Virus record (IMG/VR): IMGVR_UViG_2671180608_000003
DNA: 21,908 nt
Source of the DNA: a virus
Lineage: Duplodnaviria; Heunggongvirae; Uroviricota; Caudoviricetes
Direction: 5' to 3' (one strand)
The translations under genes were made by a program, and so were the position numbers. Below the pieces are notes generated by a model, which made no database searches, was not told the origin of the DNA, and saw nothing but the letters and a program-made list of their open reading frames with translations. Shown here in pieces: positions 407 to 21,908 of this stretch; position 1 is the stretch's first letter, and each line of letters begins with the position of its first letter.

Positions 407-1006
407 TCAGAACTTATAACCGACACCCACGATGAAACCGTCAGTGCGCCAGTCACCACTGCCGGAACCTTCATAAGCAAGGTCAATGGCCACGGATTCG
501 GTCGGGTTAAACTGCACGCCAGCCCCCCACGCCAGAGACGTGTTGCTGTGGCGACCGCCATCACTTCCGGTCAGCACATCGTGCGTTTTCCCCTTGTTGT
601 CAGTTACGCGGAGATAATCCCCGGAGAAGGTCGACACACGGCTGTAAGCCACGCCCGCCATCGCATACGCGCTGAACCATTCATTCACGCGCACAGACGG
701 CCCCGCCATCACGCTGAACCAGCGGTTACGCACGGAATCCTCATGCCAGCGGGTATCGCTGTAATGCGTTTTTTGCTCATCTTCAGCGTTGGCATAACTG
801 AATGACGTAATCAGCCCCAGCGTGTCCGTAAACTCATAACGGTATTTCACGTTAATGCCCTTCAGGTCATCGCTGCCTGGCATATCAGTATGGGTCTGAA
901 GATACCCGGCGCTCAGCGTGGACTGATGTTCAGACGCCCATGCAGGCGCACCGGATACGGCCAGGCAAATGGCTGCGGACAAAATGGCTGCACAAACTTT
1001 ACGCAT
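407..1006 (-). CDS. lom: Lom outer membrane protein (Ail/Lom/PagC family beta-barrel)
   Basis: 199 aa with N-terminal signal peptide MRKVCAAILSAAICLAVSGAPAWA and C-terminal aromatic residue (ends GYKF). Position directly after J as in lambda. GAGAGG ribosome-binding site upstream of the ATG. Confidence 0.93.
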   Translation of the reverse strand: MRKVCAAILSAAICLAVSGAPAWASEHQSTLSAGYLQTHTDMPGSDDLKGINVKYRYEFTDTLGLITSFSYANAEDEQKTHYSDTRWHEDSVRNRWFSVMAGPSVRVNEWFSAYAMAGVAYSRVSTFSGDYLRVTDNKGKTHDVLTGSDGGRHSNTSLAWGAGVQFNPTESVAIDLAYEGSGSGDWRTDGFIVGVGYKF

Positions 1007-1073: not shown

Positions 1074-4000
1074 TCAGCTAATCGTGATGCCTGCAGTGGC
1101 TTTCTTCATCACCACAACCAGCAAATCGCTGATACTTGCTGTGGGATACCAGCCATTTACCAGCCATGCCGATACAGAAAACTCCAGCGTCATGTGACCG
1201 TGACCGGCAGGCATATCAATAACACCCGTATATATCAGCGTATTATCCAGGGTCGTTCGGTTATAAATTTCAGCACCGTTTTTCTTCACTATCAGGCGGC
1301 ATGACGAATAAATATTGTTATTCTTCCGCTCATGTTTAGCACCGCGAAACGCCACCGCGGGAATAACAATTTGCCGATCAAACGGCTGATCGTCATAAAC
1401 CCTGACGGTAATGGTCCCTGATGGCCACCTCTCCGGTGCCCGGGAGTCCCGTGGGAAAGGTTTGCCCACTGTTTTAACGAGATCGCCTTCAATCTGGTTC
1501 GCGGACAATTTTCCCAGAACCCGACAGTTCTTATTAATCGTGACGTTGTTGAGCGTCCCGGAGTTCGCGTTCACGTTACCGCTGATATCGGCATTTTTCG
1601 CCGTCAGCCGTCCGCCAGGTGTCAGGGAAAATGCCGGAGGATTACCGCCGCTGGTAATGGTCGGAGCCGTCAGGCATTTCAGGAACACGTCGTTCATGAA
1701 TATCTGATCGCCCTGACCAACAAACATCGGCTTTGTGTTGCCATTCGCAGGATTAATCATCGCAATCCTGTCTGCCGCCAGCAGCACCTGACTCTGCATT
1801 CCTGCTGGCGTATTCTCAATACCGGCACCGATACCCGCAATATAAAGGCGTCCGTCCTTCATCTGTTGCAGCTTCACAGCCCACATGCTGTTCAGGTTAT
1901 TATTTGTATCAACCTGAACTTTCTGTATCTGCTGGATTGCAGCACTCTGATTTTCCAGTTTTTTATTGACGGTTTGCGTGATTTCATTGCTGACATTCGT
2001 AATGGACGTCCTGATTTCAGTCAGGTCCGGCGCAAGCTGACCGTTATCAATCTGCGTCCACAACTCCTTGCCGAGATGCGTTTTATTGATCAACCCTTTA
2101 TAAAAATTCAGATAACCTTCTGCATCATCGCTCGCCCGACCGATGGCCTCCACAAATGCCGATTTGCCAACGGTGTTCACACTGCGAACGTAAAAATAAT
2201 AATCATGGCCCGGCCTGATATTGATACTGGCGGCTATCCAGTACAGCGCCGTGCCAAGATAGCGGGCGCTGGTTTCAACCTGCCTGATATCCGCAATCCG
2301 CTTTTCCGAGAACCAGAACTCAAACTGCACCGTCGGGTCATATNNNNNNNNNNNNNNNNNNNNNNNNNNNNNNNNNNNNNNNNNNNNNNNNNNNNNNNNN
2401 NNNNNNNNNNNNNNNNNNNNNNNNNNNNNNNNNNNNNNNNNNNNNNNNNNNNNNNNNNNNNNNTTTGTGTTGCCATTCGCAGGATTAACCATCGCAATCC
2501 TGTCCGCCGCCAGCAGCACCTGACTCTGCATGCCGTCAGGGGTGTTCTCAATACCGGCACCAATACCCGCGATATAAAGGCGTCCGTCCTGCATCTGCTG
2601 CAGCTTCACAGCCCACATGCTGTTCAGGTTATTATTTGTATCAACCTGAACCTTCTGTATCTGCTGAATTGCCGCACTCTGGTCTTCCAGTTTCTTATTG
2701 ACGGTCTGCGTGATTTCATTGCTGACATCCGTAATGGACGTCCTGATTTCAGCCAGGTCAGGCGCAAGCTGACCGTTATCAATCTGCGTCCACAGCTCCT
2801 GAGCCAGATGGGTTTTCCCTATCTCGCCTTTGAAAAAATCCAGATAACCGGATGCATCATCACTCGGCTGACCAACAGCCTCCACGAATGCCGATTTGCC
2901 AACGGTGTTCACACTGCGGATATAAAAGTAATAATCATGGCCCGGTTTGATATTGATACTGGCGGCTATCCAGTACAGCGCCGTGCCAAGATAGCGTGCT
3001 GTGGTTTCAACCTGCCTGATATCCGCAATCCGCTTTTCCGAGAACCAGAACTCAAACTGTACCGTCGGATCATAAACCGCAAGATGCGGCGTGGCGGTTA
3101 TCTGAAAATAGCCCGGCGTCAGCTCAATCCGCGACAGCGCTGCCGGTGCGGCAATCCGGAACGATACCGACGCCGGATCGCCCTGCTGCCCCCACGCATT
3201 TACTGCCCGGACTGTCAGCCTGTAGTTCCCCAGCGCCAGTTGTGTGAAGCGGTAAGTGGTTTCCGTCGTCCGGGCCGTGCTGACCAGCCGCTCACTGCCG
3301 TCATCCGCTGTTACGGTCAGACGGAGCAGGAAGCTCACGCCCTTCACCACCTTCGGCGTGTCCCAGCGCGCCAGCACCTGATATTCCCCGCTGTCTGCGG
3401 TGACTTCGGCGGTCAGATGCTGCACCGCTGGCGGCGTGACACCATTCACCGTGCCGCTCTGGTCGCCGTCAAAGTGCGCCCCGTTATCCACGATGGCTTC
3501 TTTTTCCGGCACATGCTGCACGGCGGTGATGGCATACGTGCCGTCGTCGTTCTCACGGATACTCACGCAGCGGAACAGACGCTGGCGCAGCGTCGGCAGC
3601 TTCAGCCCCCACACGCTGTATTCAGCAACACCGTCAGGAACACGGCTCACTTTTACCTTCACGCCGTCGGTGACGGACTGGACCTCCACGCTGACCGGAT
3701 TCCCCTGCCCGTCAACCAGGCTTATCAGCGTGGTGCCGGAGGATGGCAGCGTGATTTCACGGTCGAGCGTCAGCGTCCGGGTCTGGCTGTTCACCGCCAG
3801 CACGCGCCCGCCGGTGCGGATACCGGCATAGTCATCATCGCAGATTTCAATGACATCGCCCGGTACATGACGAAGCCCTTCAGCACCCACGCTGAAATCC
3901 ACGGTCTGCGTCTCCAGCAGTTCCGTTTTAATCAGCCACAGCCCGGCGCGGTGTGCCTGCCCCCGGCTGGTACAGCCAAAGGCATCCATCTTCGTGACGT

Positions 4001-5285
4001 TACGACCGTAACGGACAATGGCCTGCGTATCCTCCACAAGCTCTGTCGCCGTCTCCCAGCCGTTATCCGGGTCAATCCAGTTCACCTCAACGGCATTATG
4101 GCGGTCTTTCAGGGCGCTGAAACTGTAGCGGAACGGCGCGCCATCATCCGGCATCACCACATTACTGCGGTTATAGGCCCACACCTTATCCGACTGTCGG
4201 TCCTGCACGAACGTCAGCGTCTGCCCGTTCCATACCGGCATACAGCGCATCGCCGAGCAGAAATCACTGAGCACATCCCACGCCTTGCGCTGTGTGGTCA
4301 GCCAGGCATTACAGGTGATGCGCGGCTCCGTGCTGCCAAAGCCGTCCGGCACCGACTGGTCACAGTACTGGCCGATGACATACAGCGCCCATTTATCCAC
4401 ATCTGCCGCACCAAGACGTTTCCCCATGCCATAGCGCGGATGGGTCAGCATATCCCACAGACACCAGGCCATGTTGTTGCTGTATGCTGGCTTAAGCGTT
4501 CCGTCCCAGATACCGCTGTATTGCCGCGTCTGCGGGTTATAGTTCGACGGCACCTGCAGAATGCGCCCGCGAAGATGATAATTACGGCTCACCTGCTGGC
4601 TGCCGAACTGCTCCGAATCCACCTGTACGCCGACCAGTGCCGTGTTCGGGTAGCACTGTTTCACATCGATGATTTCGGTGTATGACGACCAGAGCGTTTT
4701 GTTCTGCAGCTGGTCTGTGGTGCTGTCCGGCGTCATTCTGCGCATCCGGATATTAAACGGGCGCGGCGGCAGGTTATCCACCACCACCGAGGCCAGATAC
4801 TGCGAGGTGGTTTTGCCCTTAATGGTGATGTCTTTTTCCGTCACCCAGCCACCGTTACGCTGTATCTGAACCAGCAGGCGAACTTCAGACGGATTCCTGT
4901 CTCCCTTTGAGGTGGTTTCCACCAGTGCCTGTACACCGAAGGTAAAACGCAGTCGGTCAATGTTTGCCGACGTGATGGTCCGGGTGATCGGCGTGTCATA
5001 TTTCACTTCCGTACCCAGCACCGTCTCGGAGCCGGAGGATTCAAATCCCTCCGGCGGTGACTGCTCCTGCTCACCTGCCCGGAACACCACCGTGACGCCG
5101 GAGATGTTGGTATTCCCCTCACTGTCCAGCACCGGCGTACTGTTCAGCAGCACGCTTTTTAATCCATCCACCGGACCTTCAACCGGCCCTTCGCTGATGG
5201 CATCGATCACACTCAGCAGCTGCGTGGACTTCAGGTTGTCCTTCGCTTCGCGCGGGGTATGCCCCTTACTGCTGCCTTTACCCAT
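1074..5285 (-). CDS. J: Tail tip / host specificity protein J (central tail fibre); reading frame passes through a 120-N run and an internal divergent repeat, so true length is uncertain
   Basis: N-terminus [24 protein letters not shown] and most of the N-terminal 900 aa are near-identical to recalled lambda J. GGAG ribosome-binding site before the ATG at 5285. C-terminal ~200 aa diverge from lambda. Confidence 0.85.
1732..2343. repeat. Copy A of a divergent direct repeat inside J (distal copy, runs into the N gap)
   Basis: Collinear with 2464-3075 at a constant offset of 732 nt; roughly 90% identical by eye at nucleotide and protein level. Confidence 0.9.
2344..2463. other. Run of 120 N (assembly gap or masked sequence) inside J
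   Basis: Directly visible in the sequence. Confidence 0.99.
2464..3075. repeat. Copy B of the divergent direct repeat inside J (proximal copy)
   Basis: Collinear with 1732-2343; same J reading frame; encodes [24 protein letters not shown]...PANGNT. Confidence 0.9.
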
Positions 5286-16391: not shown

Positions 16392-20072
<3,681 letters not shown>

Positions 20073-20098
<26 letters not shown>

Positions 20099-20618
20099 TC
20101 AGCAACCCCGGTATCAGTTCATCCAGCGCGGCTGCTTTGTTCATGGCTTTGATGATATCCCGTTTCAGGAAATCAACATGTCGGTTTTCCAGTTCCGGAA
20201 AACGCCGCTGCACCGACAGGGGGATCCCGTCGAGAATACTGGCAATTTCACCTGCGATCCGCGACAGCACGAAAGTACAGAATGCGGTTTCCACCACTTC
20301 AGCGGAGTCTCTGGCATTTTTCAGCTCCTGTGCGTCGGCCTGCGCACGCGTAAGTCGATGGCGTTCGTACTCAATAGTCCCTGGCTGGAGATCTGTCTCG
20401 CTGGCCTGCCGCAGTTCTTCAACTTCCCGGCGCAGCTTTTCGTTCTCAATTTCAGCATCCCTTTCGGCATACCATCTTATAACGGCGGCAGAGTCATAAA
20501 GCACCTCATTACCCTTGCCACCGCCTCGCAGAACGGGCATTCCCTGTTCCTGCCAGTTCTGAATGGTACGGATACTCGCACCGAAAATGTCAGCCAGCTG
20601 CTTTTTGTTGACTTCCAT
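20073..20618 (-). CDS. nu1: Terminase small subunit Nu1
   Basis: 181 aa; MEVNKKQLADIFGASIRTIQNWQEQGMPVLRGGGKGNEVLYDSAAVIRWYAERD (winged helix-turn-helix N-terminus) matches recalled lambda Nu1. Starts about 180 bp from the cos junction. Confidence 0.95.
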
Positions 20619-20795: not shown

Positions 20796-20807
20796 CGCCT
20801 TCCGCCC
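20796..20807. other. cosN-equivalent 12-mer (cohesive-end position)
   Basis: Flanks align to lambda as ...CGAAAACCCGCG [12-mer] CGTAACCTGTCGG.... The 12-mer is CGCCTTCCGCCC where lambda has AGGTCGCCGCCC. Confidence 0.55.
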
Positions 20808-21006: not shown

Positions 21007-21240
21007 ATGTCAACGAAGAACAGAACCCGCAGAACAACAACCCGCAACATCCGCTTTCCTAACCAAATGATTGAACAAATTAACATCGCTCTTGTTCAAA
21101 AAGGGTCCGGGAATTTCTCAGCCTGGGTCATTGAAGCCTGCCGCCGGAGACTGTGCTCAGAAAAAAGAGTTTCGCCTGAAGCAAACAAAGAAAAGAGTGA
21201 CATTACTGAATTGCTCAGAAAACAGGTTAGACCAGATTGA
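21007..21240 (+). CDS. Small basic ribbon-helix-helix-like protein (77 aa), cos-proximal
   Basis: MSTKNRTRRTTTRNIRFPNQMIEQINIALVQKGSGNFSAWVIEACRRRL: basic N-terminus, beta-strand-like RNIRFP, helix, G-x-S/N turn, second helix, which is the RHH pattern. Weak AGGG ribosome-binding site. An equivalent ORF appears to exist next to cos in lambda, from memory. Confidence 0.55.
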   Translation: MSTKNRTRRTTTRNIRFPNQMIEQINIALVQKGSGNFSAWVIEACRRRLCSEKRVSPEANKEKSDITELLRKQVRPD

Positions 21241-21297
21241 AGCAATTTAGATAATCGTGCAGACTACGCCCCCTCATATCACATGGAAGGTACTACA

Positions 21298-21708
21298 ATG
21301 GCTCAGGTTGCCATTTTTAAACAAATATTCGATAAAGTGCGAAATAATTTAAACTATCACTGGTTTTATTCTGAACTAAAACGTCACAATGTCTCACATT
21401 ACATTTACTATTTAGCCACAGAGAATATTCATCTTGTTCTTGAAAACGATAATACGGTTTTAATAAAAGGACAGGGTAAGGTTGTAAATGTAAGATTTTC
21501 AAAAAATAAATGCCTTATAGAAGCCACCTTAAAAGGATTCAAATCAGGAGAGTTATCATTTTACGAATACAGGAAAAATCTTGCTACAGCAGGGGTTTTC
21601 AGATGGATTACAAATATCCACGAAAACAAAAGGTATTACTATACCTTTGATAATTCATTACTCTTTACTGAGAACATACAGAACACTACACAAATATTTC
21701 CGCACTAA
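21298..21708 (+). CDS. Hypothetical protein (136 aa), low-GC cargo (moron-like) gene next to cos
   Basis: Open frame 21283-21708; preferred start is ATG 21298 with GGAAGG 7 nt upstream. GC is visibly far lower than in the flanking phage genes (roughly one third versus above one half, by eye). Asn/Lys/Tyr/Ile-rich. No family recognised by eye. Confidence 0.6.
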
Positions 21709-21745: not shown

Positions 21746-21908
21746 TCGCTGGCATGATGAAATATGTGTACCCGGTAACCCCGGTGTGCATCGTTTTTGA
21801 TTATTCCCGCACACTCGCGCAGAAGGAGTTCCCCGTCGGGCTACGGTCTCTGTTAATACGGGAATACGGCGACGATTGGATTTGCCCCTATATTTCCAGA
21901 CATCTGTT

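Follow-up and report, generated by a model that had tools for sequence, protein, structure and literature searches.

A low-GC gene beside cos in a lambda-like phage belongs by sequence to the DUF1398 (YdfO-like) family and is a candidate lysogen-acting moron

The window, as we call the whole 21,908-nucleotide stretch of Caudoviricetes DNA analysed here (IMG/VR record IMGVR_UViG_2671180608_000003), carries a lambda-like phage in reverse orientation, with terminase A at 18173-20098 on the minus strand. The features at the cos-proximal end are listed below, with the evidence for each in brackets.

20073-20618, minus strand: Nu1, terminase small subunit and first gene of the late head operon (Pfam Phage_Nu1, E 2e-101; 98% identical to lambda Nu1)
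20796-20807, minus strand: site equivalent to the lambda 12-nt cos cohesive end, GGGCGGAAGGCG, where lambda reads GGGCGGCGACCT (aligned to the lambda junction after circularisation)
21007-21240, plus strand: YlcI/YnfO-family gene of 77 aa, DUF3950, co-oriented with the DUF1398 gene (Pfam PF13132, E 2e-20; NCBIfam YlcI_YnfO_N)
21221-21237, minus strand: PdhR-box-like inverted repeat, ATCTGGTCTAACCTGTT, matching 10 of 14 consensus positions (lambda alignment; homologous to the position of the K-12 ybcV box)
21228-21255, plus strand: candidate sigma-70 promoter-like element, TAGACC-16-GATAAT, 9 of 12 (consensus scan)
21283-21297, plus strand: in-frame extension from the first ATG, giving 141 aa (no Shine-Dalgarno sequence before 21283; frame broken in lambda)
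21286-21291, plus strand: Shine-Dalgarno-like GGAAGG (6 nt 5' of the ATG at 21298; kept in lambda)
21298-21708, plus strand: DUF1398-family coding sequence, orthologue of YdfO, YbcV and lambdap78 (Pfam PF07166, PDB 2HH8, RefSeq length of 136 aa, dN/dS)

Of the 12 bases at the cohesive-end site, 5 differ from lambda, and cosQ, cosB and Nu1 on its flanks match lambda almost exactly. The site may be a variant cosN.

We focused on the plus-strand ORF at 21283-21708, which comprises 141 codons and a stop, or 136 amino acids and a stop when read from the ATG at 21298. The second ATG is the better start of the gene, because GGAAGG lies 6 nt upstream of it, because a 1-nt indel in lambda separates the two ATGs and leaves only the frame of 21298 conserved, and because RefSeq gives the identical gene a length of 136 aa. 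The stretch 21283-21297 is probably untranslated. The ORF has a GC content of 0.314 and a GC3 of 0.307. Terminase A and Nu1 stand at 0.541 and 0.527, and the whole window at 0.551. Segments of 411 nt taken outside the cos-proximal region had a mean GC of 0.560 (sd 0.043, minimum 0.343), and the ORF falls below every one of them. Codons ending in A or T make up 69% of the ORF compared with 40% of the terminase genes. The ORF is antisense to the late operon (the ORF on the plus strand, Nu1 and A on the minus strand) and lies in the interval from cos to the lysis side, some 490 nt away from the cohesive-end position. The first-pass annotation, made from the sequence alone, had described an AT-rich 136-aa ORF opposite the late operon in the cos-to-lysis interval, and GC content, codon endings and strand all bear this out. 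Relative to the ybcV and ydfO alleles we found dN/dS values of 0.23-0.35, which point to purifying selection on the gene. Because of these values and a Pfam match with E 3e-43, a chance ORF is ruled out, and we conclude that the ORF is a true gene.

A second low-GC patch is found at about 2000-2800 (0.39-0.43), and contains the 411-nt minimum of 0.343. It lies inside the J-like tail-tip attachment gene (1074-5285, minus strand, 1403 aa), which is longer than lambda J at about 1,130 aa. Horizontal exchange or insertion may account for this patch.

The Pfam match is to DUF1398 (PF07166; YdfO-like), with 147 bits against a cut-off of 22 bits, and it spans the complete profile (positions 1-119 of 119). 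A phmmer search matched PDB 2HH8, the NMR structure of YdfO from the Qin prophage of E. coli, with E 1e-69, and the window protein is about 76-77% identical to YdfO. The earlier statement that the product resembles no nameable family is therefore overturned, as the protein is a full-length DUF1398 member and the structure of YdfO has already been solved. The profile search that had been proposed as a check did return a family, but one with no characterised function, and to that extent the earlier view stands that no well-characterised protein matches the product. A search of the window DUF1398 protein against NCBIfam gave no significant match. On the basis of these matches, we assign the ORF as the lambdoid-phage copy of the DUF1398 family, whose members include YdfO of Qin, YbcV of DLP12, YcgX, and lambdap78 of lambda.

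Modelling with AlphaFold from an alignment of 92 sequences reached a pLDDT of 89.3 and gave two consecutive helix-helix-strand-strand-strand halves; this model was used in place of a single-sequence AF2 model, which was discarded at a pLDDT of 51. The fold of YdfO in 2HH8, with its two helix-helix-three-strand halves, is thus present in the window protein, and the PDB has no convincing relative of this fold beyond 2HH8. When the two halves were compared by profile, we detected a weak match in structural register (P 0.015), and single-sequence comparison gave no significant internal repeat (z 0.9). The weak half-to-half match is consistent with an old internal duplication.

The window protein is basic (pI 9.4), has a mass of 16 kDa and a GRAVY of -0.41. 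It has no signal peptide, transmembrane segment or N-terminal hydrophobic stretch (maximum 19-residue Kyte-Doolittle score of 0.39), and is predicted to be soluble and cytoplasmic. In an alignment of 18 sequences reaching down to 21% identity, L27, T41 and G99 are invariant, and Y35, N43, A96, W103 and Y114 are also conserved; Y35, T41, N43, A96, G99, W103 and Y114 are all found in the window protein. The residues conserved across the family are of hydrophobic, aromatic, glycine or turn types, and a catalytic-type residue set was sought in the family alignment and not found. Because the conserved residues include no catalytic-looking set, the product could be a non-enzymatic binder, although an argument from absent catalytic residues and structural neighbours is a weak one. 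Our literature search for the role of any DUF1398 protein found no paper assigning one.

In lambda, the orthologue is lambdap78 (complement 47042..47575), which is 76% identical over the 136-aa core. It occupies the same place as the window gene, between bor/lysis and cos, and it points the same way with respect to the late operon; both the Shine-Dalgarno sequence and the upstream PdhR-box-like element are conserved between lambda and the window. Together with lambdap78, YbcV of DLP12 falls at 76-77% identity to the window protein. The first-pass annotation had placed a different AT-rich ORF on the other strand of lambda at this position, which proved incorrect, as lambdap78 is an orthologue at the same site and in the same orientation. 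Lambda and DLP12 do, however, carry an extra segment of about 600 bp between the YlcI-like and DUF1398 genes, which encodes lambdap79/ybcW on the opposite strand and is absent from the window (window 21187-21223 compared with lambda 47528-48100). The ORF that was meant may be lambdap79/ybcW, which is on the other strand in lambda and missing here.

The arrangement in the window is that of the Qin prophage, where the gene order is likewise Nu1-cos-ynfO-ydfO. YdfO differs from the window protein at about a quarter of its residues, mostly in a middle segment at about 58-92, and its prophage is defective, whereas the window copy sits in an apparently complete lambda-like late region. YcgX of E. 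coli K-12, encoded beside bluR and near the e14 prophage, is a DUF1398 protein with 43% identity that shares the conserved motifs. In contrast to the window gene, ycgX stands by itself on the chromosome, flanked by bluR and iraM, and neither a YlcI/YnfO partner nor cos or terminase lies nearby.

The identical protein is encoded by four phages, PhiR49_1, Kati, Chlobot and ev099. Phages 434 and ev207 keep a near-identical Nu1, the YlcI/YnfO gene and bor but lack the DUF1398 gene, and phi80 has neither the DUF1398 gene nor the YlcI/YnfO gene. Approximately 43 phage records contain the DUF1398 gene, compared with about 88 that contain Nu1 at 80% identity or more. The cos-ynfO-DUF1398 module (at least 80% of it) was found in 2,636 of 5,426 complete E. 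coli genomes, or about 49%, and the window allele at 99% nucleotide identity or above was found in 1,063 records of complete E. coli genomes. We conclude that the DUF1398 gene is accessory, being present in some phages and absent from others, and that the interval it occupies is polymorphic. The first-pass annotation had proposed an accessory gene in a variable slot and a comparison of the interval across lambdoid prophages; the proposal holds, and the interval is not uniformly conserved.

A small plus-strand ORF at 21756-21908 (beginning MMKYVYPVTPVCIVFDYSRT) starts 48 nt past the DUF1398 stop and runs off the end of the window. In ev099 and PhiR49_1 it is annotated as a hypothetical protein of 53-54 aa, and Pfam gave no match for it. 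Past this ORF, related phages have KilA-N, Rha or Bor genes, and it is this region that is the truly variable cargo.

Several properties of the DUF1398 gene are those expected of a moron: its composition is distinct from that of its flanks, its presence is variable, and, judging from the lambda homologue, it is dispensable. The lambda morons bor and lom resemble it: they are dispensable and atypical in composition, they lie inside the late region or on its opposite strand, and only some lambdoid phages have them. Bor and Lom differ from the window protein in being exported outer-membrane proteins with roles in serum resistance and adhesion, whereas the window protein is predicted to be soluble and cytoplasmic, and there is no homology between them. 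Lom is a classic lambda moron. The window also has a full-length gene for an Ail/Lom-family outer-membrane protein downstream of J (407-1006, minus strand; Pfam E 4e-129), and its GC content of about 0.55 is not low.

Existing annotation offers a different picture. PHROG 413 is annotated as "head protein", the RefSeq entry for lambdap78 likewise, and older records read "putative envelope protein"; together with the position of the gene next to cos, these labels would suggest a structural or packaging protein. The gene is, however, antisense to the late operon, it is missing from 434 and ev207 despite the same Nu1, its product has no signal peptide or transmembrane segment, and chromosomal non-phage homologues exist. 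The lambda copy is also dispensable for plaque formation: in a CRISPRi study lambdap78 had EOP values of 1.9/1.3 and was scored as non-essential, with plaquing unaffected (PMC10695390). Our literature search found no experimental source for either label. Thus, the "head protein" and "envelope protein" labels carried by lambdap78 homologues (NC_001416.1 and others) are unsupported, the window protein qualifies neither as a head or virion protein nor as an envelope or membrane protein, and the structural or packaging reading is close to refuted, with hardly any probability left to it.

The YlcI/YnfO and DUF1398 genes point the same way with 57 nt between them, the same pair appears in prophage annotations, and it is kept in many prophages, even beside different terminase types. 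These observations could indicate a two-gene module in which YnfO is a small DNA-binding repressor or antitoxin and the DUF1398 protein is the effector or toxin. The pairing is not obligatory, however, since 434 and ev207 have YlcI without DUF1398, and ybcW sits between the two genes on the opposite strand in lambda and DLP12. YcgX and the homologues from Klebsiella, Kluyvera and Salmonella have no DUF3950 neighbour, and the obligate tight pairing of a type II toxin-antitoxin system is not found across homologues. Apparent fusions of the two proteins arise from a TGA read as Trp, and the relative frames vary between alleles. Furthermore, none of the papers in our literature search described toxicity of ybcV or ydfO, and the ASKA clone of ybcV was scorable in a glycogen screen. 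We therefore regard a two-gene module as quite improbable.

In the window, the YnfO-like and DUF1398 ORFs share a frame across 21007-21708, with a lone TGA at 21238-21240 between them. We rejected a YnfO-DUF1398 fusion or programmed UGA read-through, as the fusions present in databases (P0014 and P0010 in our set) translate the TGA as Trp, and the identical allele occurs elsewhere with a spacer 1 nt shorter, showing that the frame is not conserved. The shared frame looks like a coincidence or a gene-calling artefact.

We also considered how far the family extends in bacteria. A sensitive single-sequence search yielded 189 clusters at the 50% identity level, many of them fragments. The real hosts are Escherichia, Shigella, Citrobacter, Klebsiella, Kluyvera, Pseudocitrobacter, Raoultella and Salmonella diarizonae. 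A much wider host range (Pseudomonas, Kitasatospora, Flavobacterium, Brevibacillus, Pedobacter and others) was rejected as contamination with lambda DNA. The contaminated assemblies, of which there are dozens, contain contigs of about 3.5 kb or about 48.5 kb with R-Rz-bor-lambdap78-ybcW at 100% identity (our loci L020-L043 and L052-L056); the size of about 3.5 kb would fit a sequencing-kit control amplicon. Lambda contamination also inflates the ENA protein clusters of the DUF1398 family. A remote but true member (E 1.7e-33) is found in the flavobacterium Epilithonimonas, directly 3' of an esterase gene. Beyond phages, homologues occur singly and on their own in unrelated contexts, such as bluR-ycgX-iraM or a position after a yeeE/yeeD-like pair, and no conserved neighbourhood emerged for the distant DUF1398 homologues. 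Because these contexts are unrelated, genomic context gives no clue to function.

Given that no phenotype is known and that the gene is often lost, it could be a decaying, functionless remnant that has been moved by recombination near cos. Mosaic alleles fit this idea, and in one of them (P0006) the ends are those of the window allele and the middle is lambda-like. Decay is difficult to reconcile with the dN/dS values, with a DUF1398 ORF that is intact and full-length in thousands of genomes, with conservation of the family as far as Flavobacteriia, and with regulated transcription of the paralogues. A remnant is thus very unlikely.

All of the expression data available to us come from the K-12 paralogues ybcV and ydfO rather than from the window phage. 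In a pdhR mutant, ybcV and ybcW mRNA fell approximately 10-fold, and a PdhR box lies between both genes, as found by gSELEX and RT-qPCR (PMC7660256); by extension, PdhR may bind the predicted box at 21221-21237. Expression of ybcV rose more than 1000-fold upon perturbation of H-NS repression by T4 MotB (PMC7827196), and the ionic liquid [C2mim]Cl induced ydfO 12-116-fold (PMC4077768). In a high-copy screen, over-expression of ybcV from the ASKA clone altered glycogen accumulation (PMC2853380). The ybcV::Kan Keio mutant is viable (PMC3945230). One phage-resistant APEC isolate had lost ydfO, where the gene is only listed, with its function given as "unknown" (PMC8711792).

Two published claims about ydfO were not accepted. 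Protection against oxidative stress was ascribed to YdfO in PMC4077768 with reference to Wang et al. 2010, but the cited paper names YfdK, YfdO and YfdS of CPS-53, and the claim is a gene-name mix-up with YfdO. An essential role for ydfO was reported from TraDIS only (PMC5821084), and deletion mutants of the paralogues exist; AT-rich or repeated sequence probably produced the TraDIS call as an artefact.

Taken together, we favour, with somewhat better than even confidence, the explanation that the window ORF is a DUF1398 accessory gene of the moron type whose product works in the lysogen through binding to a host component. In the mechanism that we propose, the gene would be transcribed leftward, antisense to the late transcript, and therefore would act in the lysogen or early in infection rather than in morphogenesis. 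Transcription would probably start at a promoter of its own inside the 3'-terminal part of the ynfO-like gene, for which 21228-21255 is a candidate; the region holds 4 promoter-like sites compared with 3.0 +/- 1.8 in shuffled sequences, which is no excess, and a site scan showed no canonical terminator 3' of the DUF1398 gene. Because the gene has only 31% GC, we expect H-NS to hold its expression low, a step argued from composition and from one indirect experiment. Stress or metabolic signals might then release expression, as suggested by the PdhR box, the ionic-liquid induction and the MotB perturbation. The product would most likely bind a host macromolecule and adjust host physiology; we expect neither an enzymatic role nor a place in the virion or the envelope. 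Taken jointly, the proposed parts (a leftward moron with its own promoter, silenced by H-NS, released by stress and encoding a non-enzymatic binder of a host macromolecule) remain tentative, and we place them a little short of an even chance.

The same polymorphic slot beside bor-type morons raises the question of whether the gene takes part in phage conflict, either by blocking superinfecting phages or by counteracting or triggering a host defence. Its lambda neighbour lambdap79 triggers the Vulcan NADase defence, and phages that escape Vulcan delete lambdap79 by recombining with Qin, which yields the arrangement seen in the window (bioRxiv 10.64898/2026.09.04.749371). On the other hand, PADLOC-DB 2.0 gave no significant match (the best was Csx23, E 0.023, 12.7 bits), our literature search linked none of lambdap78, ybcV and ydfO to phage resistance, and stand-alone homologues occur in non-phage chromosomal contexts, including in Flavobacteriia. 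We consider a conflict role unlikely, though it deserves some weight. A broader proposal would be that DUF1398 proteins, including lambdap78, are prophage effectors whose binding target is a specific host regulator or defence component (acting in anti-defence, in exclusion, or as a "connector" of stress and metabolism), and that the ylcI/ybcW/DUF1398 interval is a recombination hotspot at which effectors are exchanged with cryptic prophages. This proposal is speculative, and we hold it to be improbable without dismissing it.

The gene and its family are already on record, as are the structure and the lambda copy, and as a finding the locus is an ordinary one. What it means for the family is that lambdap78 is among the last lambda genes without a function, and the same is true of ybcV, ydfO and ycgX in K-12. 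Calling the family "head protein" or "putative envelope protein" is misleading, and both labels spread through automated annotation. For the phage itself, because the window has the ynfO-ydfO arrangement of the escapees, we predict from the missing lambdap79 that it would be a natural non-trigger of Vulcan. The type of cos-proximal allele that a phage carries, here the Qin type without lambdap79, may therefore predict its sensitivity to Vulcan.
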